A stretch of DNA of 64,000 nt from Minisyncoccota bacterium. Its GTDB lineage: Bacteria > Patescibacteriota > Minisyncoccia > Phycocordibacterales > UBA9973. The notes under the pieces were generated by a model that ran no database searches, was not told where the DNA came from, and saw only the letters and a list, made by a program, of their open reading frames with translations. Positions 3,301 to 54,165 of the stretch are shown here, piece after piece (positions within the stretch are counted from its first letter, which is position 1; each line of letters starts with the position of its first letter). The stretch is taken from the NCBI GenBank assembly GCA_028718635.1, contig JAQULK010000001.1, positions 316,692-380,691 on the forward strand, given 5' to 3'. Both the position numbers and the translations under genes were made by a program.

Positions 3301-3376
3301 ACCTTGTAATTTCAAATCTTATGGTAAAACAAATGCAATTTGTGAATACTGTAAAATGGCAGGGATCTATAAATGA
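362..3376 (+). CDS. Single-chain UvrD/PcrA-family SF1 helicase fused to a C-terminal RecB-like PD-(D/E)XK nuclease with four Cys (AddAB-like function in one polypeptide)
   Basis: N-terminal Walker A GPGTGKT with the UvrD motif order; C-terminal CPWKWYF ... CNFKSYGKTNAICEYC cysteine cluster typical of AddB/Cas4-type Fe-S nuclease domains. Confidence 0.75.
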   Translation: MKNLEKNFKEGYNRLNKAQKEAVDIIDGPVMVVAGPGTGKTQILALRIGNILLKTDIKADGILCLTFTNSAVKAMRERLRKYIGVEASKVKVSTFHGFGMDILDKYFNILGLDEKPELMNERDSVALCDDILQNNDWEYIRPRADVSRYFKDLKAMISFLKRERISGEDLKKEINREIENIKSDPASISSRGESKGKIKKEVEKKIEGLHRTEEAVKFYALYEEIKKEKNLFDYDDILESLVHIVEESEEAKNYIKESFLYVLIDEHQDSSGVQNEFLEKVWQEEEKPNIFVVGDDRQLIYGFGGASLQYFENFKNAFGKAKLITLEENYRSTQKILDSSHNLLQSSISKGKLKSNHKENHALRLIEAYYPRDEIIFSALEIKEKLKSGYDFNDIAILVPKNRQVRSTVAILKDMGIPVAGMESVNFFDVPETISFFRILKIIANPNNGDSLALSFFDKLSGISPLQAHEFLKNNKMREFSLLNIVEEKSDLFHDSNEVNIWIQKLKSWLDSSTEPLYFFIQRVGTEFLLDTAKDHRDLMTRIEVLRTVLHLVLAEIEKNPKLTLAEFLSFFGRIENYGENIPLAIFTPNEGVKVLTLHGSKGLEFDYVWIAHMDEKSFSGSKREGFALPASIKEKIEKKDEIVMKRELYVAITRAKRFCTISYALKSYTGGDQELAHIIADLEDNFEKQSAEETEKIILKRDKLAYVENKMIAEESLDLKGLVKLVSRDYEDRKISVSLLNNFFECPWKWYFRNLLQLPESKSESLEFGNIVHGSIDAILKLGKKPSEEELKNIISHQVRKSNFGNDRKQKELFNLALKIISRWTKSRLPEIGKNRENEQSVSVNDDRFPNLNIYGKIDLIENLPARHADASHAGGEGNNVRVTDFKTGGVRKKSDIEKINEEGRMSDYMRQLAMYSYLLNKNPKWKKNVVESKLEFVEASNTKDIFYSTVINKEQIDLLINDIKDYDNLVKNGKWVDRPCNFKSYGKTNAICEYCKMAGIYK

Positions 3377-3394
3377 TGTGCTATAATATCTTTA

Positions 3395-3505
3395 AATCGC
3401 GAAACATAAACTTTTCTTCGGTACGGAATTTTTGAAGCTTAAAAATTCCTGAAGTTCTCGGCTCGCCAGCCTCGAAACCCCTTCGAAAAGTTATGTTTCG
3501 CGATT
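3395..3505 (+). repeat. Family B inverted-repeat element, copy B1 (TIR aatcgcgaaacataaactttt / aaaagttatgtttcgcgatt; internal palindrome ggatttttt-gaagctt-aaaaaatcc)
   Basis: Near-identical core at 49356..49466 and 52798..52911. Confidence 0.8.
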
Positions 3506-3536
3506 CACAATATTATAAGTTTAATTTAATTTTTAT

Positions 3537-3776
3537 ATGTCAGACGAAAAAGGAGAAAATTTAGTACACGGTTTTGATATTCATGCAGGTGATCATCAGC
3601 ATGCATTAAGTTATATAGAAAGTCATATGAGTCCAGAACAATTAAAAGATATGGTTCACAGGGCAGAGAGCGGGCATAGCGCTCATTTTATGGTTACTCA
3701 CAATGGAGTACAGTCAAATTTCAAATTAATACATCAAGACGGAAAGTTAGTAATTCATCATGCGCATCACATTTAA
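3537..3776 (+). CDS. Small histidine-rich protein (13 His in 79 aa), hypothetical, possible metal-binding; stop overlaps pheS start (TAATG)
   Basis: ORF with translational coupling to pheS; composition only. Confidence 0.45.
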   Translation: MSDEKGENLVHGFDIHAGDHQHALSYIESHMSPEQLKDMVHRAESGHSAHFMVTHNGVQSNFKLIHQDGKLVIHHAHHI

Positions 3777-4498
3777 TGAACGAGGAAAATAAAAAAGGTA
3801 AAATACACCCGCTTTCAATGTTAGCTGAGGAGGCCTATCAGGCGTTTTCTGAGATGGGCTTTGAAATTGCAACTGGTCCAGAGCTTGAAAGTGATTGGTA
3901 TAATTTTTATGTTTTAAATTTCCCCAAAGATCATCCAGCGTTGGATATGCAAGATACTTTTTGGATTAAGGATCAAAAAGGAAAAGTTTTACGCACACAT
4001 ACGACGACTACCACAGCACGAGCCATAGAACAAGCAGGTAAAGATGGCAGAATGCCTTGCGCCTTTATTTCTGTTGGAAAAGTTTTTCGCAATGAAGCGA
4101 CTGATGCGACTCACGAAATGCAATTTTACCAGATAGATGGAATCATGGTGGGTAATATTGAAGATGGAATTTCTGTTGCGAATTTAAAAGGAGTACTCAC
4201 GAAATTTTATAAAAAGATGTTGGGCGAAAATACTGAGATAGAATTTCGTCCCAGTTTTTTCCCTTTTACTGAGCCTTCGCTTGAAGTTCACGCAAAGTTC
4301 AACGGGAAGTGGCTCGAAATGATGGGTGCTGGAATGGTTCATCCGAATGTGCTTCGTAACTGCGGACTTGACCCTGCAAAAGTGCAAGGATTCGCTTTTG
4401 GTGGAGGTCTCGATCGGATTGCGATGATTAAATGGAACATATCCGATATACGATTTTTTTATCAGGGAGATTTGCGTCTTAATCAATTTTCAAAATAA
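3776..4498 (+). CDS. pheS: Phenylalanyl-tRNA synthetase alpha subunit, minimal catalytic-core form
   Basis: FPFTEPS, GAGMVHPNVL, GFAFGGGLDRIAMI class II motifs. Confidence 0.92.
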   Translation: MNEENKKGKIHPLSMLAEEAYQAFSEMGFEIATGPELESDWYNFYVLNFPKDHPALDMQDTFWIKDQKGKVLRTHTTTTTARAIEQAGKDGRMPCAFISVGKVFRNEATDATHEMQFYQIDGIMVGNIEDGISVANLKGVLTKFYKKMLGENTEIEFRPSFFPFTEPSLEVHAKFNGKWLEMMGAGMVHPNVLRNCGLDPAKVQGFAFGGGLDRIAMIKWNISDIRFFYQGDLRLNQFSK

Positions 4499-4504
4499 AT
4501 TCAG

Positions 4505-6322
4505 ATGAAAATTTCTTATAATTGGCTAAAAAGTTATATTCCTGAAGTATCTAATACAGATAATCTTGTAGATATTTTTAACTATCATCTTTGCGAAGTT
4601 GAAGGCCTAGAGAAAAAAGGTAATGATACTGTTTTTGATATAAATATTTTACCAAATCGCGCGCATGATCTGCTTTCCCATCGGGGCGTTGCTCGCGAGC
4701 TTGCTTCACTTTTAGATATAAAATTTATTGATCCGATTTTAAAATATAAAATTCCCGAATCAAAACCAACTAAATTAATAAAAGAAATCAAAAGCGATAA
4801 ATGCCGCCGTTATATGGGGCGGGTTATTCGCAATGTGAAAGTGGCGCCTTCGTCAGAATGGGTCGTGAAGTATTTGGAATCGATGGGGCAGAGAAGTATA
4901 AATAATATTGTGGATGCCACAAATATTGTGATGTTTGACTGTGGACAGCCGGCGCACGTTTTTGATTTAGAAAAAGTAAAAGATTTGAGATTGCAGGTGC
5001 GATATGCTGAAAACGGAGAGAAAATTACTTTACTTGGCGGAGGAGAAAAAATCATGAATGATACTATGATGGTTATCTCTGATGATAAAGGTAATTCGCT
5101 TGATATTGCTGGTATAAAAGGCGGAACATATGCCGAACTAAATCAAAACACCACGGAGATAATTTTAGAATGTGCGAATTTTGACCCCACGAGTGTCCGC
5201 AAAACTGCTCAAGCATTGAATATTTTTACTGATGCGCGAAAACGTTTTGAAAATGATTTGTCGCCGGAGCTGGCAGAGTATGGAATAAAAGAATTGTCTG
5301 CGCTTATTTATGAAATGTGTCCAAACGCTATATTTGAGGATATCGTGGATATTTATCCGGAAAAACAAAAAGAAAGAAAGCTTTCTTTTTCCGCTGAAAA
5401 AATTTCAAAGATTTTAGGTTTAGATGTATCTATTGAGGAGATAGAGAATATATTAAAGAGATATAATTTTACATATGTAGAAGATGGTGGACGGTTTGAA
5501 ATCGTAGTGCCACCGATGCGTCTTGACCTAGTAATCGAGGAAGATATGGCTGAGGAGATCGGCAGAATTTTGGGTTACGACAAAGTCAAAGCGCAAATGC
5601 CTGAAATTGGTTTTCAACCAAAGCAAAATGAGACTTATTTCAAAATATCTTTTGCGAGAAATAAATTGCTAGAAGAAGGATATTCTGAAGTGATGACAAG
5701 CAGTTTCTGCGATGAGGGAGAGGTGGAGGTCTTGGCTTCTGCTTCTGATAAAAATTTCTTAAGAACGAATCTGACAGATGGATTGAAAGAGAGCTTAAAA
5801 TTAGATCAAGTGAATGCCCCATTGCTTGGAATAGAAAAAGTTAAAATTTTTGAGATTGGAACAATTTTCAAGAAAAGCGGAGAAGAGATGCACGTTGCTT
5901 ACGGAGATAAAAAAAGAATAAAAGAAATGAAATTGAAAGATTTTCTACCACCTCGCCCTTCGGGCACTCCTCTTCAGAAAGGAGGAGAAGAATTTCCTCC
6001 CCGCCTTGATAAGGAGGGGGCAGGGGGTGGTAAATTTAAAATGTGGTCACTGTTTCCTTTTATTGCGCGTGATATCGCTGTCTGGGTGCCGGAAAATGTC
6101 CAGAACCAGGAAGTAGCAAAAATTATAAAAGAAAACGCGGGGGGAATGGTGGTTCGCGGACCGGAACTTTTTGATGAATTTAAAAAGGGAGATAAAATAT
6201 CTTATGCTTTTAGATTAGTTTTTCAATCTTATGAAAGAACTTTGAATGACCAGGAAGTAAACGATATTATGACCAAAATAACTGATAAAATAAAGGAAAA
6301 TGTTGATTGGCAAGTGAGGTAA
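4505..6322 (+). CDS. pheT: Phenylalanyl-tRNA synthetase beta subunit (short form) carrying an in-frame palindromic element insertion
   Basis: MKISYNWLKSYIPE N-terminus typical of PheT; B3/4 and B5 regions; adjacent to pheS. Confidence 0.88.
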   Translation: MKISYNWLKSYIPEVSNTDNLVDIFNYHLCEVEGLEKKGNDTVFDINILPNRAHDLLSHRGVARELASLLDIKFIDPILKYKIPESKPTKLIKEIKSDKCRRYMGRVIRNVKVAPSSEWVVKYLESMGQRSINNIVDATNIVMFDCGQPAHVFDLEKVKDLRLQVRYAENGEKITLLGGGEKIMNDTMMVISDDKGNSLDIAGIKGGTYAELNQNTTEIILECANFDPTSVRKTAQALNIFTDARKRFENDLSPELAEYGIKELSALIYEMCPNAIFEDIVDIYPEKQKERKLSFSAEKISKILGLDVSIEEIENILKRYNFTYVEDGGRFEIVVPPMRLDLVIEEDMAEEIGRILGYDKVKAQMPEIGFQPKQNETYFKISFARNKLLEEGYSEVMTSSFCDEGEVEVLASASDKNFLRTNLTDGLKESLKLDQVNAPLLGIEKVKIFEIGTIFKKSGEEMHVAYGDKKRIKEMKLKDFLPPRPSGTPLQKGGEEFPPRLDKEGAGGGKFKMWSLFPFIARDIAVWVPENVQNQEVAKIIKENAGGMVVRGPELFDEFKKGDKISYAFRLVFQSYERTLNDQEVNDIMTKITDKIKENVDWQVR

Positions 6323-6327
6323 AATTT

Positions 6328-6460
6328 CCCCCCACACCTATTTTGTTATTGCTTTTTGTTCTGATTTTATTTTATTTCGTATTGTAAATATAAAAGAGAA
6401 TATTAAAATAATAAAAGTATTGTTTTGAAAAGCAGAACGATAACAAAATAGGTGTGGGGG
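6328..6460 (+). repeat. Family C element, copy C1: perfect 21-bp TIR cccccacacctattttgttat / ataacaaaataggtgtggggg around a 90-bp AT-rich interior
   Basis: Direct reading; related copy at 13973..14051. Confidence 0.85.
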
Positions 6461-6698
6461 TTTCTCCACAACTTACCCTTGCTTTTTAAAATAATAATGC
6501 TATAGTCTGATTATGAAACGAGGAATGCGTCCAAGTAAATATTCTTCAACAAGCACGCTGTTGCTCAGCCTTAAATTTAGAAGGCTGATGTTTGTGCTGT
6601 AAAAATCTCCAAAAAATTACAACCCAAAAATGAGCCTTCTAACCAAAGGCATTTTTTTGTTTTTCGAAAACAGAAGAGAAGAAAGGGGGTAGTAAAAG

Positions 6699-6857
6699 AT
6701 GCCAAGCGATGAACGTCATTTTCAAGAATCAAATTCTTATGTGGGGGAAATTTTTCAGGAAACAGCTCCACAAGGAGAGACTACAGTAGAGTGTCCAGTC
6801 GCCACAGCGTGTATTGACTGCGAACACTACAAAAAAGACTGCAAAGCCTGGAAGTAA
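6699..6857 (+). CDS. Candidate small cysteine-rich peptide (52 aa, MPSDERHFQESNSYVGEIFQETAPQGETTVECPVATACIDCEHYKKDCKAWK) with a strong SD (aaggggg) 8 nt upstream and a hairpin terminator downstream
   Basis: ORF below the 60-aa cutoff of the supplied track; GGGGG SD; followed by the hairpin at 6878..6919. Confidence 0.35.
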   Translation: MPSDERHFQESNSYVGEIFQETAPQGETTVECPVATACIDCEHYKKDCKAWK

Positions 6858-6877
6858 AAGTGAAGTAATCCATCATC

Positions 6878-6930
6878 AAAAGCCACAACGTCCGAAAGGA
6901 GGAAAAACGTTGTGGCTTTCGTACTTTTAC
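6878..6930 (+). terminator. Hairpin aaagccacaacg-N17-cgttgtggcttt followed by a T-containing tract; probable terminator of the small peptide gene
   Basis: 12-bp perfect stem; weak U-tract. Confidence 0.5.
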
Positions 6931-6942
6931 CCAAAAAATCAC

Positions 6943-6971
6943 TAGCAAAACTAATAATATTTTGCTATAAT
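6943..6971 (+). promoter_or_regulatory. Putative sigma70-type promoter (-35 TAGCAA, 17-nt spacer, -10 TATAAT at 6966..6971) only 8 nt upstream of the gyrB ATG, implying a leaderless or near-leaderless mRNA
   Basis: Consensus -10; no Shine-Dalgarno sequence before the ATG at 6980. Confidence 0.45.
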
Positions 6972-6979
6972 ACATATGT

Positions 6980-9900
6980 ATGGCGAAAGAAAAAGAAGAC
7001 AAAAAAGGTGCCGAAAAAGGGCACCGTTATGATGCCTCTGACATTTCCGTTTTAGAGGGGCTAGAACCCGTCAGGCGCCGTCCTGGCATGTATATCGGCA
7101 CCACGGGGCCCGAAGGATTACACCACTTAATATGGGAGATTTTTGATAATTCACGCGACGAAGCGATGGGTGGTTTTTGTAATGATATTGAAATTGTCCT
7201 TCTTCCCGGCAATCGCATTCGCGTGGCAGACAATGGCCGAGGCATACCGATCGATATTCATAAAAAAACAAAAGTTTCTGCTTTGGAAACTGTGATGACG
7301 ACGCTTCACGCTGGAGGAAAATTCGGAGGGGAAGGATACAAAGTTTCCGGAGGTCTTCATGGAGTCGGCGCTTCTGTCGTAAATGCTCTTTCTATTTATT
7401 GCAAAGCGGAAGTTTATAGGGATGGCGGAAAGTATTACCAAGAATATTCTCAAGGCAAGAAAAAATCTGCAGTTAAGAAGAGCGGTGCTTCGAAACTTCA
7501 TGGTACCATCATTACCTTTGAACCCGATGAAGAAATTTTTGGCAAAATTGTGTTTGATTGGAATACGGTAATGAGCCACATCCGCCAGCAAGCTTATTTG
7601 GTAAAAGGATTAAAAATTTTAATAATTGATGCAAGAGGGTGGGATAATCAGAAGGGCTTAAACGAAGAAGACGTTTTTTATTTTAGAGAATTAGGACTAG
7701 AGTTACCCTCAGTGACTTTTTATTTCGAAGGCGGATTGGTTTCTCTCGTAAAATATTACAATAAACTTCATAAGCCGATTCAAAACCACATTTTTTATGT
7801 TGAAAAAGAATTAGATAAAGTTGGGGTAGAAATAGCTTTACAATATGTAGATGATATTTCAGATAGAATTTTTCCTTTCGCCAATAATATTTACACCGGA
7901 GAAGGCGGAACCCACGTGACTGGTTTTAAAACAGCTCTCACTAGGACACTCAATACTTACTGCAAGAAAAATGAAATGATGAAAGAATCCGAAGGCGGAT
8001 TTACCGGCGATGATGTCCTGGAAGGATTGACGGTGGTTATTTCTGTAAAGCTTCGAGAGATACAATTTGAAGGGCAGACTAAAGGGAAATTGGGCAGTAT
8101 GGAGGCTCAGGGTGCGGTGGCGACAGTTTTCGGCGAAGCTTTTGCAAGCTTCCTAGAAGAAAATCCAGATGATGCCAAAGCAATAATCAACAAGTCAATT
8201 CTAGCTCTAAAAGCGCGTAAGGCAGCAAAGGCAGCCAAGGACTCAATCCTTCGCAAAGGCGCATTGGAGGGGATGACTTTGCCGGGGAAGTTGGCAGACT
8301 GTCAAAGTAAAAATGCCTCTGAATCGGAATTGTTTTTGGTAGAGGGGGATTCGGCAGGAGGATGTTTTTCAGCAGATACTAAGGTCGCTTTAGTTGACGG
8401 CAGAGATATTTCTTTTAAAGAATTAATTTTAGAACACAATCTAGGTAAAACAAATTATTGTTATACGATTCTGGATGATGGAAGTATCGGTATTCAAAAA
8501 ATTCTTAATCCAAGAAGAACAAAAATAAATACTGAGGTTATAAAAGTCATGCTAGACAATGAAGAAGAAATTGTTTGCACTCCAGACCACCTTTTTATGC
8601 TTCGTGATGGTAATTATAAAGCAGCTCAAGATCTCGAATCAAATGATTCATTAATGCCGTTGCGAAAGCAATTTTCTAAAATAGGCAAAAGAATTACAAT
8701 TGAAGACTATGAAATGGTTTATGACGGGAAAGATCATAGGTGGATATTTACTCATTTGCTTTCTGATAATTATAATTTAGAGCAAGGCGTTTATCCAATT
8801 ACTGAAGGTTCACATAGGCATCATAAGGATTTTAATAAAAGAAACAACAATCCTGAGAACATTATTCGTTTAACTAAGGAAGAACACATGGCATTGCATG
8901 CTCTCCTTTATGAAAAAAATTTAAAGAGGCCGGATGTTTTGGAAAAATTAAAGAACATAAGAAACACTCCTTCATATCGGGGAAAGATACGCCAGAAAAT
9001 GCTCTTAATGAGAGATGAGCTTAGCGCTCGCGCTAAAGCCCAATGGGAAAACGAAGAATATAAAAAATACATGGTTCAGAAATTTTTAGATTTTTATGCT
9101 TCCAACGAAGAATATAGAAAAAAAAGCCAAGAAATTTTAAAGATTGCTCAGAAAAAATATTGGTCAAATGAGGCAAATGTAGAAAAACAATCCCAAAAAG
9201 TAAAGAATTTTTTTAAAGCGCACCCTGAATTAAAAAAAGGACTTTCTGTAATAGCTAAAGAACAATGGGCAAACTTTGATTTATTGAAATGGCGAAGCGA
9301 TAAGACTAAAGGGCAATGGACCGAAGAATTCAGAGAAAAAAGAAAAGTTGCTTATGATAAAACCTATTATGAAAATACCATCAAGGTGTTGAGAAGAGTT
9401 TATGATAACAATAAAGAAATTGACGTAAATCTTTTTGAAGAAATAAGAAAGAGAGAAAATAATAAAAATGTTCTTTCTTTTAAAACCTTTGTAAGCAGGT
9501 TTTTTGACGGAAACGAGACTGAATTATCTGAGGCAGTGGAAAATTATAACCATAAAATAAAAAAAATTATCCAGCTTTCAGAAAAAATAGATGTTTATGA
9601 CTTAGAAGTTCCGGGAACTCATAATTTTGCTCTTGCTTCTGGAGTTTTTGTTCATAATAGCGCTAAACAGGGTAGGGATCGCCGTATCCAAGCGATATTG
9701 CCACTCCGAGGTAAAATTTTAAATGTTGAGCGCGCGCGAATAGACAAGATGCTCGCTTCCAAAGAAGTGAAATCTCTCGTTATCGCTATGGGTACTTCTA
9801 TCGGAGATACTTTTGATTTAGAAAAAATGCGTTATCATAAAATAATTATTGCTACCGATGCCGACGTGGACGGTTCGCACATTCGTACTTTATTGCTTAC

Positions 9901-18916: not shown

Positions 18917-20829
18917 TTTGTTTTTGCCATTTGGAATTTAATATTTTCTTCTTTGCCTTCTGTTATATTGCTTATTTGAAAAACAGAATTTTGTTGGGTA
19001 ATGTTTTTTACTGCTGTCATCGAGCCGTCTTTAAATAATTTTAATTCTAAAAGCATGCCTTTCATTGTCGGCTTGCTCCAAGATTGGTCAAAAATAAAAT
19101 TGCCAAGTGAATAGGCAATATAACCATTTTTGTAAATTTCGGTATCTTCTACGATATGCGGGTGTGAACCAATAATAATTTTTGCACCATCATCAATCGC
19201 TCTATGGGCTAATTCCTCTTGTCTTGCGTTATGTTTTGTCTGATACTCTACGCCGAAGTGAAAAGCGACGACTAAATAATCCACTTGTTTAGCTGCATTT
19301 TTAATTATTTGATCAAAATTGGGATTGTTTGCGAGGAGAATGCCTGCTTTGCCAGCGTCGGCAGGCAAATTGTTCGGACCAACGTCAGAAAATCCCAGGT
19401 AGCCGATCTTCATTCCATATTTTTCAATAATGGCTGGAGTTTCAGCTTCTGTTGCATTGTTTCCTCCGCCAGTATAAAGGATTTCATTTTCTTTTAGACG
19501 CGCGAGCGTATCAATAAAGGCGTTATGTCCCCAATCATTAATATGATTGTTTGCCAAAGACAAAACGCTTAAACCTGCACCTTTAAGAGTCGGGATGACG
19601 ACGGGATCCATTCTAAAGGAATATAAATTTTTCTGATCTGCCCCTTTGTCCGAAACTGGACCTTCCAAGTTAGCAAAGAAGATGTCCGTGTTTTTTGATA
19701 ATTCAAGCAAGGTGTCTGATTTTTCAAAAAGCTGAGAATAGTCATTGTTGAAATTTTTTATGACTGAATTTTTTACGCCGCGATCGAGCATTATGTCGCC
19801 GGCAAAAGACAAGGTAATAAAATTCTGATCTCTGATGTCCGGCATTCCGATTTTTTCCTGCACCCAATTCGTATTTATATCAGCAGCTCCGCCGTAGTAA
19901 ACATTTTTCCTTAAATATTTTAAAAGAGTTTCTACGTCATTATGACGGTCAGAACTTTGAAGTAAGGTAATGGCAATGGGTTGAGAACCAGTTTTTCCAA
20001 GAGGCAGATCAAAGAGAGAAACGACGGTTTCCTTTGCAGGGTCTGTATAACCGCTTTTTCCTCCCATGTATCCTTCATTCTTCAGGAACTGGCTAATGTT
20101 TGACCAACTGTGAGTTTTGGTGGAATAACTGTTTTTGGTAGTGATTTTAAATAAATCCGATTTTTGCTGAGCTATATAACCGGCCAATTTAAACATATCG
20201 GACACGGTTGATTGATTGTGGGAAGTGAGTCCGCTAGGGTCTTCATAAGAAGTAGAATTCATTTGCAGAGCTCTCGCTTCCTGATTCATTTTCGCGATGA
20301 AACTGCTTCTGCCGAAATATAAAGCAAGCGCTTCCGCTGCGTCGTTGCTTGATTCCAAAAGGAGCGGGTATATTAGATCAGAGATTTTTATTTTTTCTCC
20401 CAATCTCAATTCTCCGTTTTGGCCGGAAGTTGAGAGGGCGGTCTTGGTTATTTTGGTCGTCTCGTTTGGGTTTGCTAATTTACTGGCAACGAGCGCGGTC
20501 ATTAATTTGGAGGTAGAGGCAATCGGAAATTTTTGATCTTGATTTTTTGCAAGAATTACTTCTCCGGTATTCAAGTCGCCGACTAGATAAGCTTTAGCAG
20601 AAACTTTTGGTCCACCTTTTGTATCATTGTTTATATAATAATATTGGAGTTTTGTTGATTCTGGGGCGACAAGTTGGACTACTGAGGCCTCGTTATTTTT
20701 TGTTTGGAATATTTTTATAGAATTAATATTGTTAAAAATAAAGGATACAAAAAAAATACCAAGTATTATTGGAGGCATTGTCCAAAATATTAATTTTGTT
20801 TTATTTTTTATTTCTTTAATAAATTTCAT
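18913..20829 (-). CDS. Membrane-anchored fusion: D-alanyl-D-alanine carboxypeptidase (PBP5-like, SxxK = ASTSKLMT) and a C-terminal CapA/PGA-type metallophosphoesterase domain
   Basis: STSK motif; ANNHINDWG and GGGNNATEAE motifs of the CapA family. Confidence 0.7.
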   Translation of the reverse strand: MKFIKEIKNKTKLIFWTMPPIILGIFFVSFIFNNINSIKIFQTKNNEASVVQLVAPESTKLQYYYINNDTKGGPKVSAKAYLVGDLNTGEVILAKNQDQKFPIASTSKLMTALVASKLANPNETTKITKTALSTSGQNGELRLGEKIKISDLIYPLLLESSNDAAEALALYFGRSSFIAKMNQEARALQMNSTSYEDPSGLTSHNQSTVSDMFKLAGYIAQQKSDLFKITTKNSYSTKTHSWSNISQFLKNEGYMGGKSGYTDPAKETVVSLFDLPLGKTGSQPIAITLLQSSDRHNDVETLLKYLRKNVYYGGAADINTNWVQEKIGMPDIRDQNFITLSFAGDIMLDRGVKNSVIKNFNNDYSQLFEKSDTLLELSKNTDIFFANLEGPVSDKGADQKNLYSFRMDPVVIPTLKGAGLSVLSLANNHINDWGHNAFIDTLARLKENEILYTGGGNNATEAETPAIIEKYGMKIGYLGFSDVGPNNLPADAGKAGILLANNPNFDQIIKNAAKQVDYLVVAFHFGVEYQTKHNARQEELAHRAIDDGAKIIIGSHPHIVEDTEIYKNGYIAYSLGNFIFDQSWSKPTMKGMLLELKLFKDGSMTAVKNITQQNSVFQISNITEGKEENIKFQMAKTN

Positions 20830-22817
20830 TATATTAAAACATAGTCTATAGTTTTTTTCTCCAAATCAACTGCTTTTACTTTTATTTTAACATGATCGCC
20901 AAGACGATATCTTTTTCCTTGCCTACCGGCAGGCGGGTTCTTTTTTTGCCCGACCAATTCTAGTTTTTTTTCATTAAAAATATAAAAGTCGTCTTTCATA
21001 TCTCGTACTCGTACGAGGCCTTCGCATTTTGTACCTATCTCTTCAACATACATACCCCACTCAGTTATGCCACTTATCACTCCATCAAAACTTTCCCCTT
21101 TGCGTTTAGACATATATTCCACTTGTTTGTATTTTATGGATGCTCGTTCGGCTTCCGTTGCCCGTTTTTCTTGTTCAGAAGCGATTATGACAATTCTTTC
21201 ATATTCTAATAATTTTTCTTTTAATTTATTATTTGTCACTTTTTTCTTTGCAAGATAATCACTCAATAATCTATGGATCATAATGTCTGGATATCTTCTG
21301 ATTGGGGAAGTGAAATGCGTGTAATATTCAAAAGCTAAGCCATAATGGCCGATATTTTTTGTAGAATAAGTTGCTTTGGCCATAGACCTGATCACGGCGC
21401 GATGTACCGTATCACTCATTATTTTGTTTGGGTTTTTGCTTTTTAAATCTTCAAGTAATTTATTTATTTCATGAGTTGGAATTATCCCGTCTTGTAATGA
21501 TACTTTGTGTCCCAAGCTTCGTAAGAAAAATGCGAGATCAGCCATTTTCTCTTTTGATGGTTCATCATGGATGCGATAAATGGAAATATCTTTTGAGAGA
21601 ACTTTTGCCACTTTTTTATTTGCCAGCAACATAAACTCTTCAACTAGTCTATTGGAATCACCTCGTTCTTTTTTTATTACTTTTATCGGGGTACCCTTAT
21701 CATCTAAAATAAATTTAACTTCTTCTTGGTCAAGTGATATAGCGCCTTTAGCAAATCTTTCTTTGGTTAATTTTTTTGCTAAATTATTCAAAATGGAAAG
21801 CTCTTTATGTAGGGGAGCATTTTCATTTTTTATTGCCTCGCCCGTAGGGCTATGGCCGAGGGCTTTTTCTGCTTCTTCATATGTAAATCTTTTTTTAGAA
21901 TGTATTACAGTGCGACCAAACCATTCATCTTTTATTTCTGCGTTTTTATTAATAATAAATACTGCGCTCATGGTGAGTCGATCTTTGTGGGGGACTAAAC
22001 TGCACAAATCATTCGAAAGAGTTTCCGGGAGCATCGGTATTGTTCTGTCTACTAGATAAACCGAGGTTCCTCTTGTGCGGGCTTCTTCATCTAAAGCGCT
22101 GCCAGGTCTCACATAGTGAGACACGTCTGCTATATGGATGCCGACTTCATACACCTCACCCCCTAGCCCCCTCTCCTTATTAAGGAGAGGGGGGAGAATA
22201 CGAAAAGAAATTGCGTCATCAAAATCTTTTGCATCCTCTGGATCAATCGTAAAAGTTAGTGTTTTTGTGAAATCCCGACGTCCTTCATAATCACTTTTTC
22301 TTATTCCTTCGCGCTTTATTTTTTTTGCTTCTTCTTCTACTTTATTTGGAAGTTCTGAATCAAAACCTTTTTCTATCGCAATTGCATTCATCTCGGTAGT
22401 GTTGTCACCAGGTTTTCCCAAGATTTTTATTACTTTTCCAATGGGAGCTTTTTGCGCGTCTTTCCATGAAACTATTTCCACAAAAACTTTTTGCCCGATT
22501 TTTGCGTTATTCAAATTTTCTTTTGGAATCAAAATATCCGTGTACATTTTCGTGTCATCTGTTTTCAAAAAAACTACATTTTTTTCTTGTTCCAAAACTC
22601 CGGTAAAACGCATTTTTGCGCGAGAAATTATTTTTACTACTTCGGCAGTCTGGCGTTTCTGGCTTTTTGGGTGGAGAAGTATCTCCACCATATCTCCGTG
22701 AAGCGCAGTATTCAAATGCTTAAAATCAATTTCCGGATCTTGTTCTTTATTTTTTCCTATTCCTACGGCTACATATCCCGTGCCTTTTGAGGAGATAGAA
22801 ATAATGCCCTCGGCCAT
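20829..22817 (-). CDS. rnr: Ribonuclease R / RNB-family 3'-5' exoribonuclease with a C-terminal S1 domain; contains an in-frame palindromic insertion
   Basis: RNB domain motifs, S1 at the C-terminus; start chosen at MAEGIISI to avoid overlap with the divergent promoter. Confidence 0.85.
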   Translation of the reverse strand: MAEGIISISSKGTGYVAVGIGKNKEQDPEIDFKHLNTALHGDMVEILLHPKSQKRQTAEVVKIISRAKMRFTGVLEQEKNVVFLKTDDTKMYTDILIPKENLNNAKIGQKVFVEIVSWKDAQKAPIGKVIKILGKPGDNTTEMNAIAIEKGFDSELPNKVEEEAKKIKREGIRKSDYEGRRDFTKTLTFTIDPEDAKDFDDAISFRILPPLLNKERGLGGEVYEVGIHIADVSHYVRPGSALDEEARTRGTSVYLVDRTIPMLPETLSNDLCSLVPHKDRLTMSAVFIINKNAEIKDEWFGRTVIHSKKRFTYEEAEKALGHSPTGEAIKNENAPLHKELSILNNLAKKLTKERFAKGAISLDQEEVKFILDDKGTPIKVIKKERGDSNRLVEEFMLLANKKVAKVLSKDISIYRIHDEPSKEKMADLAFFLRSLGHKVSLQDGIIPTHEINKLLEDLKSKNPNKIMSDTVHRAVIRSMAKATYSTKNIGHYGLAFEYYTHFTSPIRRYPDIMIHRLLSDYLAKKKVTNNKLKEKLLEYERIVIIASEQEKRATEAERASIKYKQVEYMSKRKGESFDGVISGITEWGMYVEEIGTKCEGLVRVRDMKDDFYIFNEKKLELVGQKKNPPAGRQGKRYRLGDHVKIKVKAVDLEKKTIDYVLI

Positions 22818-22909
22818 AGACCTACGGGCGAGGTCTTGCCGTATGTGTTGTTTATTTAAATTATTTTTCACCTTATAAATATAGCATAATTTAAACAACC
22901 ATAGAGTGA

Positions 22910-22937
22910 TTGACAATCATTTAAAATATGGTAGAAT
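22910..22937 (+). promoter_or_regulatory. Strong promoter: -35 TTGACA (22910..22915), 16-nt spacer, extended -10 TGgTAGAAT (to 22937); the ATG at 22945 is 7 nt downstream, so the transcript is leaderless
   Basis: Direct consensus match. Confidence 0.55.
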
Positions 22938-22944
22938 CAAGGTT

Positions 22945-23553
22945 ATGGATAAAGTATCAAACAAATGGAAAAAGTTCTCAATGTTTACAGTTGTAATTCT
23001 AATGGTTTTTTTGAATTCTATTACACCGGTATTAGCATATGATGAAAGCTTCGAAACTGATATGCCTTTTTATACAGGTGTTGATTATGATACAGGCGTT
23101 AATTATATGTATGGTACGAATTACGACTCAGGTGCTTTTTTTGAAAGTGGCGAAATTTACATTACTGGTGAAGATTTCGGCACAGGTGAAATCTTTTGGA
23201 CCGGAACTGATTATTATACTGGTGTCACGTATCAAATTGGACAAACCTTTGATACCGGATCAAATTTCAGTACCGGCGTTACTTTTAGAGTAGGTAATAC
23301 TGAATACGTCGGTATTGCCTATCGAACTGGTCAAAATTTAAGAACTGGTGTTAATTATTACACTGGAATCGCATATCAAACTGGCCAAATATTTAATGCG
23401 GGGGAAAATTATTCAACTGGTATGTTTTTAGGAACAGGCAATAATTACTCTACTGGCACTATGTACCGAACTGGCCAAACTTTTGGAACCGGTACTACAT
23501 ACAATACTGGCACTATGTATAATACTGGTCAGGTTGTGAGAATGGGAAGTTAA
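22945..23553 (+). CDS. Secreted protein of about 28 tandem hexapeptide repeats (TGxxYx / TGQxFx) after a signal peptide
   Basis: Signal peptide MDKVSNKWKKFSMFTVVILMVFLNSITPVLA; regular 6-residue periodicity of T-G and aromatic residues. Confidence 0.6.
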   Translation: MDKVSNKWKKFSMFTVVILMVFLNSITPVLAYDESFETDMPFYTGVDYDTGVNYMYGTNYDSGAFFESGEIYITGEDFGTGEIFWTGTDYYTGVTYQIGQTFDTGSNFSTGVTFRVGNTEYVGIAYRTGQNLRTGVNYYTGIAYQTGQIFNAGENYSTGMFLGTGNNYSTGTMYRTGQTFGTGTTYNTGTMYNTGQVVRMGS

Positions 23554-23607: not shown

Positions 23608-23916
23608 ATGTTAAAAATAAGACTTCAGAGAATAGGAAGGAAAAATGATCCGGCGTTTCGGGTTGTTTTGACTGATTCAAAAAATAGCACCAAAAGCGGA
23701 CGATTTTTAGAAATTGTCGGAACTTATAATCCAAAAGCCGGAGAGACAAAATTCGAGGCTGAAAGAATAAAATATTGGATGTCAAAAGGCGCGAAGCTTT
23801 CCGACACAATGCACAATTTTTTGGTGTATCAAAAAGTTATTGAAGGCAAGAAAGTAAATGTTTTGCCTAAAAAGAAACCAACTGTTAAAAGAAAGGAATT
23901 GAAAGCCAAAAGATAA
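23608..23916 (+). CDS. rpsP: Ribosomal protein S16
   Basis: MLKIRLQRIGRKNDPAFRVVL. Confidence 0.92.
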   Translation: MLKIRLQRIGRKNDPAFRVVLTDSKNSTKSGRFLEIVGTYNPKAGETKFEAERIKYWMSKGAKLSDTMHNFLVYQKVIEGKKVNVLPKKKPTVKRKELKAKR

Positions 23917-23917
23917 T

Positions 23918-23968
23918 TCACCTCACCCGGCCTTTGGCCACCCTCTCCTTAATAAGGAGAGGGGCTGG
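23918..23968 (+). repeat. Family D nested palindromic element, copy D1 (outer cacctcaccc...gggggtgaggt, inner ccctctccttaataaggagagg)
   Basis: Inverted copy at 45137..45198; related in-frame copies inside pheT, smc-like, rnr and dnaG. Confidence 0.85.
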
Positions 23969-24077
23969 GGGTGAGGTCTTATTGCTACAAAATTTTAATT
24001 AGTTATAATTACAGGTATAGCAGTATGTCAGGTCGTAACACTGCAAGTTTAGTAAAAGATTAAATTAAAAAAACATT

Positions 24078-32199: not shown

Positions 32200-34053
32200 A
32201 TGAACTCTCCTGTCCAACAAATTAAGGAGAGGCTATCAATTGAAGAAGTAGTCTCTTCTTATATAAAGCTAGAAAAGGCAGGCGCAAACCTAAAAGCAAA
32301 ATGCCCGTTTCATAACGAAAAAACTCCTTCCTTTTTTATTTCCCCTGATCGAGGCACTTACTATTGTTTTGGATGCGGGGTAAAGGGCGATATTTTTACT
32401 TTCGTAGAAGAATTTGAAGGTCTTGATTTTAGAGGAGCTCTTAAATTGCTTGCCAGCAGAGCGGGAATTGTTTTGGAATCTTACAATCCGAAAGATCAAA
32501 GAAATCAGAGCGAAAAAGAAAGATTATATGAAGTCATGGAAGAAGCGACTGTTTTTTTTGAGAAGAATTTAAAAGAAAATCCGGAAGTTTCATCTTATCT
32601 AAAAAATAGGGGGCTGAATGATGAAAGTATAAAAAATTTCCGTATTGGTTTTGCCTTATTGGAGTGGCGTAAACTTTATGATTATTTAAAATCTAAAAAT
32701 TTTTCTGACAGTGAAATAGAAAAAGCAGGACTTGCAAAGACCCCCTCCGCCGTTGGCACCTCCCCCTTGATAAGGGGGAGGCTGGGTGGGGGTCTGTATG
32801 ACAGATTTCGTGGACGAATAATGTTTCCTATCTCGGATTCTAGCGGACGGGTTATTGCTTTTTCCGGAAGAATCTTTGTTGATGACGGAAAGTCTGCGAA
32901 ATACCTAAATAGCCCTGAAACTTCTATCTTTAATAAATCCGCTGTTCTTTTCGGCATAGATAAAGCTAAAGACCCCATTCGGAAAAATGACTTTTCTATC
33001 TTAGTTGAAGGTCAAATGGATTTGATTTTATCTCACCAAGCAGGATTTAAAAATACCGTAGCTTCCTCGGGGACAGCCATGACTGATTCAGTATTGTCAA
33101 AAGAAAATATTATAAATAACCTAGGACTTATCACCAGATTGTCAAAGAACATGGTCCTTGCTTATGATGCTGATAGAGCGGGGGTGAGTGCGACTAACCG
33201 TTTTGCTAAGATTGCATTATCTTTGGGTATGGATGTAAAGGTGGCAGATATACCCGAGGGAATGGATCCGGCTGATTTGATTTCCCGTGGCTATAGCCAA
33301 ATGGGCGAGGCAAAAGTTGGAGTGGATGCCTGGCGGGAAGCGATAAGGAATTCGAAACATTTTATCGAATTTATGCTGCTGAGGATCTTAAAAGATACTA
33401 ATTCTGACAATAGAAAGGCTGGCAGGGAAATAAAGGAACGCTTGCTTCCTTTTGTGAATGAGATAGAAAGCTCCATAGAAAAATCACATTTCATTACATT
33501 AATCAGTAATAAATCAGGGATTCCTGAAAATGCCCTGATGGAAGATTTGAAAAAAGTAGAAACTGAATTTAAGAATGAAAAAGAAGATATCAAAATCGCC
33601 AAAGAAAATATAGAGAAAAAATTAAGAAAAGACCCGATCGAGCGAAGGCTTTTAGGTATAGCTTTTTGGCAAGAGAGTCTGTCGGACGTTGGACGTCCGA
33701 AATTCGGACGTCCAACGTCCGACAAAACGTCCGACAAACCTAGAATTGATCCAGAATTGATTTTTAAAAAATTAGAAAAAGCAAAAGAAAATGTTAAAGA
33801 AAAATATAAAGACAGGAGAGAGGATTTGATTTATGAGGTAGAAGAATTTTACTCAAATAATGAAAATCTGGAAAAAGACGTAGAGGAAATGCTGCTCAAT
33901 ATAGAGGAAGAATATTTAAATGAAGAATTTAGCATTAAGATGATAGAATACCAGAATTGCAAAGATAAAATAGAAAAGGAAGAAATTTTTAAAAAAATAA
34001 GTGAAATAACAAAAAGAAAAGAAGATATTAAAAATAGTCGTATAAGAAAATAA
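32200..34053 (+). CDS. dnaG: DNA primase carrying two in-frame palindromic insertions
   Basis: Zn-ribbon CPFHNEKTPSFFISPDRGTYYCFGCG; TOPRIM EGQMDLI. Confidence 0.9.
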   Translation: MNSPVQQIKERLSIEEVVSSYIKLEKAGANLKAKCPFHNEKTPSFFISPDRGTYYCFGCGVKGDIFTFVEEFEGLDFRGALKLLASRAGIVLESYNPKDQRNQSEKERLYEVMEEATVFFEKNLKENPEVSSYLKNRGLNDESIKNFRIGFALLEWRKLYDYLKSKNFSDSEIEKAGLAKTPSAVGTSPLIRGRLGGGLYDRFRGRIMFPISDSSGRVIAFSGRIFVDDGKSAKYLNSPETSIFNKSAVLFGIDKAKDPIRKNDFSILVEGQMDLILSHQAGFKNTVASSGTAMTDSVLSKENIINNLGLITRLSKNMVLAYDADRAGVSATNRFAKIALSLGMDVKVADIPEGMDPADLISRGYSQMGEAKVGVDAWREAIRNSKHFIEFMLLRILKDTNSDNRKAGREIKERLLPFVNEIESSIEKSHFITLISNKSGIPENALMEDLKKVETEFKNEKEDIKIAKENIEKKLRKDPIERRLLGIAFWQESLSDVGRPKFGRPTSDKTSDKPRIDPELIFKKLEKAKENVKEKYKDRREDLIYEVEEFYSNNENLEKDVEEMLLNIEEEYLNEEFSIKMIEYQNCKDKIEKEEIFKKISEITKRKEDIKNSRIRK

Positions 34054-36530: not shown

Positions 36531-36566
36531 GCAAAACTCCTCCGACCCAGGTCGGAGGAGTTTTGC
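36531..36566 (+). terminator. Rho-independent terminator (stem ctcctccgac / gtcggaggag, loop cca, then TTTTG; A-tract upstream makes it bidirectional)
   Basis: Perfect 10-16 bp stem plus U-tract. Confidence 0.7.
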
Positions 36567-39901: not shown

Positions 39902-39946
39902 AATAAAAACTCTTTTACCTGCCTGCCGGCAGGCAGGTTTGCTCTG

Positions 39947-52790: not shown

Positions 52791-52797
52791 TTAACTT

Positions 52798-52911
52798 TGA
52801 ATTACAAAACATAAACTTTTCTTCGGTACGGATTTTTTGAAGCTTAAAAAATCCTGAAGTTCTCGGCTCGTCAGCCTCGAAACCCCTTCGAAAAGTTATG
52901 TTTCATAATTC
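52798..52911 (+). repeat. Family B element, copy B3; ends immediately before the ATG of the decarboxylase gene at 52912
   Basis: Core shared with B1 and B2. Confidence 0.8.
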
Positions 52912-54165
52912 ATGATAAATATCATGTCACATTGCAATCCGGAAGAAAGACAAGTTGAGCCTTGGGTTAACGAAGAAGGTTTTCAAAAATTGAATTTAAA
53001 AAATGTTGAAACTCCTTGCTATATTGTAAGCGAGGGGAATCTTGAGCGTAATTTAAAAATTCTCGAAAAAATACAGAAAGATTTAGGAGTAAAAATTTTA
53101 ATTGCCCTTAAATGCTTTTCGATGTATTCTGTCTTTCCGCTCATAAGAAAATATTTAGCGGGGACAGAAGTGAGTTCAGTAAATGAAGCGCGTCTAGGAT
53201 ATGAAGAATTCGGCAAGGAAAATCATATTTTTTCTCCATCCTACACCGATAAAAATATCAAAGAATATATAAAATACGGCAACCATATATCTTTCAACTC
53301 TTTTTCTCAATGGAACAAGTTCAAAAAAACCATCAAAAATTCCCTCGGTCGTAGCCCTACGGGTGAGACCAAGAAAAAAGTGTCTTGCGGTATCCGAGTA
53401 AATCCAGAACACAGCGAAGGAACCATGCCTATGTATGACCCTTGTGTGCCCCGTTCGCATCTAGGCGTGACTTTAGCGAATTTTGAAACAAATAACATGG
53501 AAGGGATAGAAGGATTGCATTTTCACACTCTTTGTGAAAATGGCGCCGATAAGTTTGCGCGCACTCTGAAAGCTTTTGAAGAAAAGTTTGGAAAATTTTT
53601 AGGAAAGATGAAATGGGTAAATTTCGGAGGCGGGCATCTTCTTACCAATTCCGATTATGACCTTGATTTGCTTTATAAGGTCGTTTCTGATTTTAAAAAA
53701 AGATACCCGCACTTGACGGTCTATTTCGAGCCGGGAGAAGCAGTAGTGATGAATACCGGAGGTCTAGTGGCTTCTGTGATAGACATTTTTAATAACGGAG
53801 TAGATATTGCCGTTCTTGATGTGTCAGCGGCGTGTCATATGCCGGATGTTTTAGAAGTGCCGTATTTGCCGAAAATTGTGGGTGCGAAACCTATAACTGG
53901 TAATTGTAAAATTGAGGGAGAAAAAAATGTTTATAAGCTAGTGGCGCCGACGTGTTTGACTGGAGACGTTATCGGTTTTTATTCTTTTCCTAATAAATTA
54001 AAAATCGGAGACAAGATAATTTTTCTCAATATGGCGATTTATACGATGGTAAAGAATAATACCTTTAATGGAGTCAATTTGCCGAATATCACCAAGATGG
54101 ACAAGAAGGGGAAAATAAAGGTCTTGAAAAGATTTGGGTATGAGGATTTTAAAAGAAGGCTATAG
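52912..54165 (+). CDS. nspC: Carboxy(nor)spermidine decarboxylase (NspC family)
   Basis: TPCYIVSEGNLERNLKIL ... ILIALKCFS ... GGGHLLT pattern of NspC. Confidence 0.78.
   Translation: MINIMSHCNPEERQVEPWVNEEGFQKLNLKNVETPCYIVSEGNLERNLKILEKIQKDLGVKILIALKCFSMYSVFPLIRKYLAGTEVSSVNEARLGYEEFGKENHIFSPSYTDKNIKEYIKYGNHISFNSFSQWNKFKKTIKNSLGRSPTGETKKKVSCGIRVNPEHSEGTMPMYDPCVPRSHLGVTLANFETNNMEGIEGLHFHTLCENGADKFARTLKAFEEKFGKFLGKMKWVNFGGGHLLTNSDYDLDLLYKVVSDFKKRYPHLTVYFEPGEAVVMNTGGLVASVIDIFNNGVDIAVLDVSAACHMPDVLEVPYLPKIVGAKPITGNCKIEGEKNVYKLVAPTCLTGDVIGFYSFPNKLKIGDKIIFLNMAIYTMVKNNTFNGVNLPNITKMDKKGKIKVLKRFGYEDFKRRL

Follow-up and report, generated by a model that had tools for sequence, protein, structure and literature searches.

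The 64,000-nucleotide window analysed here, which is the whole stretch taken from contig JAQULK010000001.1 of a Paceibacteria genome (candidate phyla radiation, CPR), carries six copies of a GC-rich hairpin repeat of 40-85 nt that we refer to as family D. Two of the copies are intergenic, flanked according to Pfam by rpsP and a KH-domain gene in the one case and by mreC and tgt in the other. The remaining four lie in frame within essential genes, and Pfam matches confirmed their hosts as PheT (B3_4, B5, FDX-ACB), an SMC_N protein, RNase R (RNB, CSD2, S1) and DnaG. All copy counts for this genome refer to the window. The six copies share the core CCYYCYCCTT-NN-TAAGGRGRRGG, and the core pattern CCYCYCCTTNNTAAGGRGRGG, with up to two mismatches allowed, was found at six places (5999, 16986, 22170, 23942, 32760 and 45153, giving 11 strand-hits), compared with a chance level of 0 matches in 100 dinucleotide shuffles. 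A covariance model (R1), run with its filters off, recovered the same six sites and no seventh copy in the whole window. An earlier, sequence-only reading of this DNA had proposed a dispersed family of nested palindromes with in-frame copies in pheT, an smc-like gene, rnr and dnaG, and both proposals hold, the reading frames having been checked in each gene. Its two intergenic copies required only adjustment: the one placed at 23918-23968 is a real element whose end had been set too short, with the right arm missed, and the inverted one was confirmed with refined boundaries (Table 1).

The basic unit of family D is about 40 nt long and combines a polypyrimidine/polypurine hairpin of 10-12 bp, CCCCTCTCCTT-NNN-AAGGAGAGGGG, with a conserved tail behind it, GGGGTGAGGT. 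An outer stem arises where the opposite side bears another tail, ACCTCACCCC, in inverted form, and in the window a small hairpin of free sequence, placed between the tail and the main hairpin, gives rise to a Y shape. Folding of the full copies predicts this Y, or three-way junction, in which the outer stem leads into two hairpins, a small variable one and a long main one. The outer stem, of 9-10 bp, reads ACCTCACCC/GGGTGAGGT when the copy is intergenic, and the smc and dnaG copies have ACCCC(C/T)TCC/GGGTGGGGGT; the main hairpin of the window copies spans 10-11 bp. The small hairpin takes the forms GGCC-TTT-GGCC, GACC-TTC-GGCC, GTC-ATTCT-GAC or GCC-GTT-GGC. Predicted folding energies lie between -28 and -43 kcal/mol (z-scores relative to shuffles, -2.5 to -4.3), and the G+C content of the copies is 0.51-0.71 against 0.37 for the window.

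Table 1. Family-D copies and two further repeat families in the 64-kb window; bit scores are from the covariance model.
Feature	Position	Host gene	Strand	Score and fold	Encoded peptide or remarks
Intergenic copy 1, full-length Y, 59 nt	23919-23977		+	71.5 bits, E=1.4e-15; fold -28 kcal/mol	
Intergenic copy 2, full-length, inverted	45137-45196		- (model orientation)	60.4 bits	
SMC/Rad50-like gene copy	16963-17020	16129-18327	+	61.2 bits	DPFRHSDTSPLIRGRLGGG, at predicted coiled-coil break
dnaG copy	32739-32794	32200-34053	+	59.2 bits	TPSAVGTSPLIRGRLGGG, in turn preceding conserved YDRFRGR motif
rnr partial copy	22152-22194	20829-22916	-	35.6 bits	LPPLLNKERGLGGEV, right behind DxDDA catalytic motif
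pheT composite copy	5947-6031	4505-6322	+	15-17 bits; four-way fold -43.2 kcal/mol	
Second repeat family, ~120-130 bp	243-381, 14330-14452, 47929-48076, 49203-49336				Terminal inverted repeats ATCCCGTTAGAAGC(N)G(N)TCGCGGTC
Third palindrome family	21826-21868, 22803-22833, 53336-53378				CCTCGCCCGTAGG(G/T)CTATGGCCGAGGGC

Intergenic and coding copies of the element

Copy 1 has the sequence CACCTCACCC-GGCCTTTGGCC-A-CCCTCTCCTTAATAAGGAGAGGG-GCT-GGGGGTGAGGT and begins 3 nt beyond the rpsP stop codon (23914-23916). It lies upstream of a promoter-like site of the KH-domain gene at 23982-24009, and CTTATTGC is found directly 3' of it. Copy 2 is 92% complementary to copy 1 over 63 nt and takes up the whole of the mreC-tgt spacer. 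Its 3' arm on the plus strand, GGGTGAGGTG, stops 4 nt short of the tgt ATG (45201) and is the only Shine-Dalgarno (SD)-like sequence ahead of this gene. Terminator scans reported neither copy as an intrinsic terminator, that is, a GC-rich hairpin with a U-run, and on these grounds we rejected the identification of the intergenic copies as canonical terminators.

These positions raise the question of whether family D is a functional nucleic-acid module under selection, with mobility being secondary. Acting as RNA, such a module could shield mRNA 3' ends, or it could sequester and release a Shine-Dalgarno sequence, its arms pairing an anti-SD mimic (CACCTCC / CCTCCTTA) with an SD sequence (GGAGGT / TAAGGAG). 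In the case of mreC and tgt, the outer stem would be opened by a ribosome that finishes mreC, and GAGGTG would become available for tgt. The location of copy 1 directly behind rpsP also recalls the repetitive extragenic palindromic sequences (REPs) found downstream of genes (PMC3733652). Against this role stand the absence of a terminator signature from the intergenic copies and the absence of an Rfam family: at the gathering threshold no match was obtained at the six sites or in 15 loci of other phyla, the best sub-threshold match being to an unrelated snoRNA (19 bits, E=0.03).

The four coding copies are all in frame and in one orientation relative to the gene, although two different frames are used. 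The smc and dnaG copies encode TSPLIRGRLGGG in one frame, and the rnr and pheT copies encode PPLLNKERGLGGEV and FPPRLDKEGAGGG, respectively. The third frame of the loop, T-TAA-TAA-GG, is visibly blocked by stop codons in the sequence itself. No sequence is shared between the flanks of the dnaG site and those of the smc site. The copy in rnr consists of the main hairpin and the GGGGGTGAGGTG tail only, lacking both the left arm and the small hairpin, and the structure of B. subtilis RNase R (8cdu) has a 10-residue gap exactly opposite the insert. The copy in pheT is composite: besides the outer stem, the long hairpin and a small one (GCCC-TTC-GGGC), it has a further hairpin, CTCCTCTTCAGAAAGGAGGAG, nested inside. 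It sits in the linker between the last catalytic-like module, whose Pfam match ends at residue 460, and the FDX-ACB domain, which starts at residue 515.

AlphaFold models were used to locate the inserts in the SMC-like protein and in DnaG. In the SMC-like model (mean predicted local distance difference test, pLDDT, 71.0) two helices, at residues 178-277 and 298-339, are parted by an unstructured stretch with pLDDT<50 at residues 282-295, which would place the insert in an interruption of the coiled coil. The DnaG model (63-sequence alignment, mean pLDDT 71.5) drops to pLDDT<50 at residues 185-196, within the insert at residues 181-198, and this low-confidence stretch falls between two short strands. 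The sequence-only reading had suggested that the copies are tolerated as surface loops, and for DnaG and SMC the models support this, the inserts being predicted to form loops between regular secondary-structure elements. The SMC-like protein, of 732 residues, also has a conserved G-x-CP-x-CG motif (residues ~340-357) at the apex between its two long helices, which looks like a zinc hook of the Rad50/SbcC type and not like an SMC hinge. Small palindromes of the GGTCGGACC type are present in its low-confidence C-terminal stretch, residues 584-612.

Filled and empty sites in relatives

The DnaG, SMC-like protein and PheT of the window are 100% identical to their counterparts in a 'Candidatus Pacebacteria/Paceibacterota' metagenome-assembled genome. 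The closest syntenic relative is JGI 3300037810 Ga0376277_0000190 (loci L121 and L124), in which the genes from pheT to tgt are arranged as in the window and which shares 80% identity with the window in DnaG and 84% in SMC. This relative is empty at five of the six window sites, namely after rpsP, between mreC and tgt, and in dnaG, rnr and smc. Its spacer behind rpsP is without a family-D element, and between mreC and tgt it has an unrelated 47-nt spacer with no SD-like sequence before tgt; that copy 2 gives tgt of the window its only such sequence is a point in favour of a functional module. Directly after rpmF, the relative carries a strong family-D copy (75 bits) where the window has a different inverted-repeat element of ~120 bp, and the sites therefore differ both ways between the two relatives. 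The window element there is a copy of the second repeat family, which spans the rpmF-nusB spacer and abuts the next ATG. Presence/absence polymorphism between sister genomes, to which the sequence-only reading had pointed, is thus borne out by the two intergenic sites and by three of the genes, smc, dnaG and rnr. The lineage-specific indels that it had expected are supported for rnr by the gap in B. subtilis RNase R, but not for pheT, where the element occupies a hypervariable, palindrome-holding linker and the net length change relative to the closest relative is +4 residues. The rnr insert is absent from L124 and from a further relative, L125, and a third relative, L126, holds a different GC-rich insert at the same place.

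The linker of PheT varies between 41 and 72 residues across orthologues. The composite peptide of the window was found in four other orthologues (P0249, P0266, P0271 and P0297), and the remainder have at least five other types of linker peptide. In L124 (2573-4378) and L125 (563-2371) the linker DNA forms a palindrome of another family, AT-richer and with a stem of 20-22 bp (AAATGCTGGCACAGAAAAATTT... / AAATATCGGAGCAGAATTCTT...), and the two palindromes differ from each other by compensatory changes. A hairpin therefore appears to be kept at this coding position even without family D.

A similar picture was obtained from surveys of 120 orthologues each of DnaG and the SMC-like protein. Before the YDRFRGR motif of DnaG, 103 orthologues have a short turn (KKTEKGF or KKPEDKSKAM), eight have the family-D peptide and nine have other GC-rich inserts at the same point, for example PLPTSPEGGGGKPSPLGRVGRG. 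At the DNA level the dnaG insert of L122 has the same design, with an outer stem and two hairpins. The SMC insert is present in ten orthologues, always with a copy-specific small-hairpin peptide (RHSD or RPEG), and absent from the other 110, some of which hold NPRHGGA or PPERPRSLGRAG there. Each of the four coding sites is a hot-spot loop with different palindromes in different lineages. The DnaG and SMC carriers of the same copy, including its copy-specific small hairpin, are orthologues of 65-80% identity, so that the smc and dnaG copies must be old and not recent. For the coding copies this contradicts the sequence-only reading, which had described the element as active or recently active. 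The window, L125 and L126 all retain the Y fold in their smc copies, and the L126 copy differs from that of the window by paired changes, GTC/GAC to GCCC/GGGC in the small hairpin and T-A to A-T in the main stem. In the dnaG copy of L123 the fold is kept through G-T wobbles.

It might be argued that the coding copies are preserved by a function of the peptide (SPLIRGRLGGG / PLLNKERGLGGEV), the palindrome being incidental, as TSPL(I/L)RGR.GGG is retained in DnaG and SMC orthologues across lineages. However, most orthologues have no such insert (103/120 for DnaG and 110/120 for SMC), and elsewhere other frames or the other strand are read, giving unrelated peptides (TSPPAPLLNKERVAERPGEV). Identical DNA is intergenic in two of the window copies, the substitutions are compensatory at the nucleotide level, conservation at synonymous sites is limited to stem positions, and the modelled inserts are low-confidence loops. 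A peptide function is therefore very improbable. Still less credible, to the point of being negligible, is an assembly or binning artefact arising from chimeric reads or from cyanobacterial or phage contamination. The G+C of the element (0.6-0.7) does lie far above that of the host (0.37) and the same sequence occurs in other phyla, but every coding copy preserves the frame, orthologous copies are present in independent assemblies (NCBI, JGI, ENA and Logan), and the copies differ among themselves by compensatory changes.

When neighbour-joining trees of DnaG and SMC were computed from alignments in which the insert had been masked, the carriers were scattered, requiring six state changes for SMC and seven for DnaG, and almost all of them had an insert-free orthologue as nearest neighbour. 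Over the whole smc gene the window is 0.80 identical to L124 and 0.76 to L125, whereas in the ~200 nt around the insert this order is reversed, to 0.55 and 0.89, respectively. Such a local reversal is the expected product of a short recombination tract carrying the insert, although it is suggestive only. We prefer one gain followed by exchange between lineages, because the orthologous copies have their copy-specific small hairpin in common and the smc insert lies within a local mosaic tract, and we judged repeated independent insertion at the same codon to be less likely than this single origin. The old smc and dnaG copies may have been kept as hairpins and moved between related lineages by short-patch homologous recombination, and the intergenic copies would then be the younger ones.

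Wider occurrence, mode of spread and known repeat systems

A scan of the 23-nt core against one genome per species gave at least 120 loci. Among the matches listed were Nostoc, Rivularia, Scytonema, Microcoleus, Bacteroidota, Ignavibacteria/Melioribacteraceae, Chthonomonadaceae, Dehalococcoidia, Turneriella, Planctomycetota and many Patescibacteria. Further copies of the element thus exist in abundance, in other genomes as well as in viral and metagenome contigs, and the idea that family D is peculiar to a CPR host has to be abandoned in view of its presence in cyanobacteria, Bacteroidota, Chloroflexota and phages. In other taxa the design runs from ACCTCACCCC through a small hairpin, whose sequence is free, an A and the main hairpin to GGGGTGAGGT, and one-tailed and two-tailed forms without the small hairpin are also present. 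In Nostoc, Rivularia and Scytonema the long hairpin (23-27 nt) is often nested within larger inverted-repeat elements. Model R1 identified 64 copies at E<1e-5 in 100 sources. In the alignment of these copies 93.6% of cells are paired, and double-sided compensatory cells number 112, compared with 24 in shuffles and 9-30 with slid partners; all four pairs of the small hairpin covary. A 32-nt stretch, comprising the long hairpin and right flank of the intergenic subfamily, is exact in 17 metagenome contigs with one free position. The G+C of these contigs ranges from 0.32 to 0.62, and in most of them the Y element is complete, its small hairpin being variable. Seven copies of this set lie inside open reading frames (ORFs) of 276-824 codons, and one of these hosts looks like a DNA polymerase I, judging by its N-terminal sequence.

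The core is present in 41 viral contigs. One of them, L128 (IMGVR_UViG_3300048592_001291), is a phage fragment with genes for the terminase large subunit and for portal, minor head and neck proteins, and contains, within 7.3 kb, five near-identical units of hairpin and tail, located at 1894-7274. Two of these units are in frame, in the terminase large subunit and in the minor head protein. The L128 units are the clearest sign of recent proliferation, and since five such units have multiplied there, the one-tailed 40-nt unit is sufficient. The family is found in many phyla and in phages, and is therefore not host-specific but has the character of a widespread selfish mini-element.

The wider sample also bears on the functional module considered above. 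Compensatory conservation extends even to coding regions of orthologues at 65-80% identity, all wobbles in the window are G-U in the transcribed strand, and the intragenic wobbles are G-U on the sense strand in 17 cases and on the antisense strand in eight. However, the latter counts include orthologous, non-independent copies, and over all 64 copies the numbers are 35 and 24, which is not decisive. Among 116 distinct copies, 21 are intragenic, ten in sense and 11 in antisense orientation, and we rejected the uniform orientation of the four coding copies in the window as a rule for the family. The occurrence of both orientations in genes, the unrelated contexts, including phage structural genes, and the empty state of five of the six sites in the closest relative all speak against selection for a function as the primary explanation, which we regard as unlikely. 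The mimicry of the arms, the SD-like sequence of copy 2 and the lean of the wobbles towards the sense strand are also compatible with the later co-option of a selfish element.

We propose that the family-D copies are a non-autonomous, selfish, palindromic mini-element, and put the probability of this reading at roughly 0.75. The unit would be copied to new sites by a factor that is supplied in trans and not encoded in the window. As there is little intergenic space, the insertions that survive would be those that adjoin stop or start codons or keep the reading frame, and those within genes would not be read in the loop frame that contains TAA and would lie in permissive surface loops. Such a survival filter could explain why, in many lineages, palindromes are found in the same few hot-spot loops of PheT, SMC, RNase R and DnaG. 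Phages are a plausible vehicle for the spread of the family across phyla.

In the 15 nt on either side of 54 full-length copies we observed neither a target-site duplication nor a position-specific base preference. The sequence ATAAT, which precedes three of the window copies, was rejected as a target, as it is not general in the wider sample. These results are relevant to the possibility that family D is a classical MITE, or miniature inverted-repeat transposable element, that is, a deletion derivative of a DDE-transposase insertion sequence (IS) with 10-bp terminal inverted repeats, (G)ACCTCACCC...GGGTGAGGT(C). The terminal repeats are indeed sharp and conserved, the copies are dispersed, in cyanobacteria they are nested in larger inverted-repeat elements, and the insertion context is AT-rich. 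Yet the 54 full-length copies lack a target-site duplication, and both the proliferating unit of L128 and the rnr copy have only one 'terminus', and a two-ended DDE enzyme should not move such units. In addition, 40-60 nt is under the usual size of a MITE, and no parent IS with these ends was seen in ~1.6 Mb of loci, making this origin distinctly improbable. For the mini-element that we propose, the most likely mobilising agent would be a hairpin-recognising single-strand DNA enzyme of the HUH/Y1 kind, similar to the REP-associated tyrosine transposases (RAYTs). We favour such an enzyme, albeit tentatively and with considerable doubt, because there is no duplication and no conserved target, one-ended units proliferate, the small hairpin is conserved in structure and not in sequence, and the hairpins are kept by compensatory changes.

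Several observations weigh against a selfish mini-element. Clustering of all ORFs within 1.5 kb of the elements, at about 180 loci, revealed no transposase or RAYT linked to the family and no recurrent neighbour gene. A RAYT-like Y1 transposase (motifs NHFH and YIHLNP) does lie between rpoD and dsbA of one relative (L122, 13601-14263), but it is flanked by other hairpins, CTAGGTC-n-GACCTAG, and was rejected as the mobiliser. A tblastn search of ~125 loci with this protein, in which the source genome was represented by its window only, gave matches in L122 and L053 alone, neither of them flanked by family-D units. The scattered copies at the same codon are not predicted by independent transposition and would call for recombination or repeated loss. 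No filled and empty pair is close enough to fix the boundaries of an insertion, and the elements in smc, dnaG and rnr replace 3-8 ancestral residues and are not clean insertions. The long-term conservation of sequence and structure within coding regions could reflect function. Lastly, the data for the source genome are 64 kb of a contig of about 672 kb, and its copy number and its lack of an enzyme gene refer to these 64 kb. A family-D-like hairpin was noted just past rpoD in L122 (13049-13090).

The best-supported placement is that family D works like the REP, MITE and Rickettsia palindromic elements (RPEs), yet it cannot be filed with any of these, because every testable defining feature beyond the general architecture fails. 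In-frame insertions of all three have been documented, many of them in replication/repair genes and tRNA synthetases (PMC3733652, PMC6006769, PMC10969869). The RPEs (Ogata et al. 2000, 2002) are ~100-150 bp long, occur only in Rickettsia and relatives and have a CGTC end tag (summarised in PMC10969869, PMC3733652). Family D resembles them in being a palindromic selfish repeat of a small, gene-dense genome, with intergenic copies as well as many in-frame copies in housekeeping genes, located at permissive sites and tolerated at loops. It differs from them in its length of 40-85 nt, its polypyrimidine/polypurine hairpin and ACCTCACCCC/GGGGTGAGGT tail, its occurrence in many phyla and phages, and its termini, ACCTCACCC/GGGTGAGGT, which have no CGTC tag; this separation was made without alignment to the RPE consensus.

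The resemblance to REPs and REPINs lies in the combination of a short GC-rich hairpin with a conserved unpaired tail, as hairpin plus GGGGTGAGGT is the minimal repeated unit of family D. Single units occur alongside inverted-tail forms that resemble a 'double foot', there is no target duplication, and the sites include positions just downstream of genes as well as intragenic, in-frame ones. Intragenic REPs are likewise often found in replication/repair genes and tRNA synthetases, and the host range of RAYT subclass 2.4, which covers cyanobacteria, Bacteroidetes and scattered phyla (PMC3733652, PMC6006769, PMC3116915), is the same odd range as that of family D. What defines REPs, however, is a tetranucleotide, GTAG or GT[AG]G, located 0-2 nt to the 5' side of the hairpin (PMC6006769, PMC3733652). 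In family D the 5' side of the hairpin is ACCTCACCCC(NN), GTGG/GTGA is found inside the 3' tail only, there is no GTAG or CGTC, and the conserved tail, 10 nt in length, is placed 3' of the hairpin when the G-rich strand is read. In the loci examined, no RAYT gene had family-D units at its flanks, and REP families are normally specific to a species or genus.

With MITEs such as Correia/NEMIS, ERIC, Nezha and QMITE, family D shares a non-autonomous nature, terminal inverted repeats (9-10 bp in the full-length copies), a strong fold and a capacity for in-frame fusion with host ORFs and for supplying regulatory signals to neighbouring genes (PMC10969869, PMC5896051). It differs in its much smaller size, in its functional-looking one-ended units, in having no target-site duplication and in the absence of a parent IS from the loci examined. 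Elements of the IS200/IS605 type also leave no duplication, but the fixed upstream tetra- or pentanucleotide target that marks them was not seen in the 54 copies.

The small dispersed repeats (SDRs) of heterocystous cyanobacteria, described by Elhai et al. in 2008, are said to be hairpin-forming mobile repeats of 21-27 nt that are nested in larger repeats of Nostoc-type genomes. By description, the long hairpin of family D (23-27 nt), which is abundant and often nested in Nostoc, Rivularia and Scytonema, is similar, and cyanobacterial SDRs could overlap with it. SDRs have been reported only within the Nostocaceae lineage (PMC5861425), whereas family D is also present in Patescibacteria, Bacteroidota, Chloroflexota and phages. 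In the literature searched, with SDRs compared by description, we found no account of family D or of in-frame palindromic repeats in CPR genomes, and the literature text held no relevant match to 10-11-mers of the element or to its encoded peptides. The kind of element is already known; what is new is its range across phyla and phages, its Y-shaped modular build and the turnover of hot-spot loops in essential genes of CPR bacteria.

These results extend selfish DNA within coding genes, of which Rickettsia is the classical case, to the ultra-small Patescibacteria, where it affects core proteins of replication, chromosome maintenance, RNA decay and translation. The repeated refilling of loops in DnaG, the SMC/Rad50-like protein, RNase R and PheT is a concrete mechanism by which CPR proteins can acquire loop insertions specific to one lineage. 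If confirmed, a near-identical family in distant phyla and phages would serve as a tracer of cross-phylum DNA traffic and would point to a mobilising activity of very broad host range. Inserts of this kind also call for practical caution, because they raise the apparent divergence of proteins, give rise to spurious 'hypothetical' peptides and can lead alignment-based phylogeny and G+C binning astray. A bolder reading, which we regard as unlikely, is that of a pan-bacterial, phage-shuttled unit, near-identical across phyla, with arms that mimic anti-SD and SD sequences and a structure that is actively maintained in essential genes. Such an element would be unlike the known REP or MITE families, which are bound to a species or genus. 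It would imply a host-independent copying mechanism that has not yet been described, phage-encoded or RNA-mediated for example, or alternatively a domesticated, portable signal for translation or mRNA processing. The successive palindromes that refill the same loops would then represent a general and unrecognised mode of protein-loop evolution in the CPR.

Other repeats in the window

The two further repeat families listed in Table 1 are separate from family D. One copy of the third family lies in frame in rnr, where it encodes the peptide ALGHSPTGEA, absent from L124, L125 and L126, and another lies over the likely rnr start codon. The C-terminal region of RNase R (20829-20950) has a 7-residue NPPAGRQG insert that is absent from three relatives and from B. 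subtilis, and a palindrome, ACCTGCCTGCCGGCAGGCAGGT, at 39917-39938 could encode a similar peptide. A perfect palindrome with a 21-bp stem, TGTCGGACGTTGGACGTCCG-AAATT-CGGACGTCCAACGTCCGACA, is found in frame in the C-terminal part of dnaG (33680-33724). It is also present in dnaG of L122 (11465-11511) and not in that of L121, and AlphaFold gives pLDDT<50 at residues 497-511.

Within tgt there is a GC-rich direct repeat of 45 nt, CCCCGTACGGAGCCGCAGGCTCTCGTTCGGGG, whose two copies (46042-46086 and 46378-46422) are 93% identical. The TGT protein has 465 residues in the window, compared with 424 in L121, and its Pfam match falls in two stretches. A dispersed repeat of 126 nt occurs in three copies (3387-3512, 49348-49473 and 52792-52917) that are 71-90% identical and apparently upstream of genes. 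Between rnr and rpsP, the ORF at 22906-23553 contains an imperfect tandem repeat (23193-23531) with a start-to-start spacing that alternates between 90 and 54 nt, which suggests that it encodes a repetitive small protein. Directly 3' of a DUF378 gene lies a hairpin with a 16-bp stem, GCAAAACTCCTCCGACC-CAGG-TCGGAGGAGTTTTGC (36531-36566), and the motif TCCGACCCAGGTCGG is common to this hairpin and a part of the RNase P RNA region (54542-54563).

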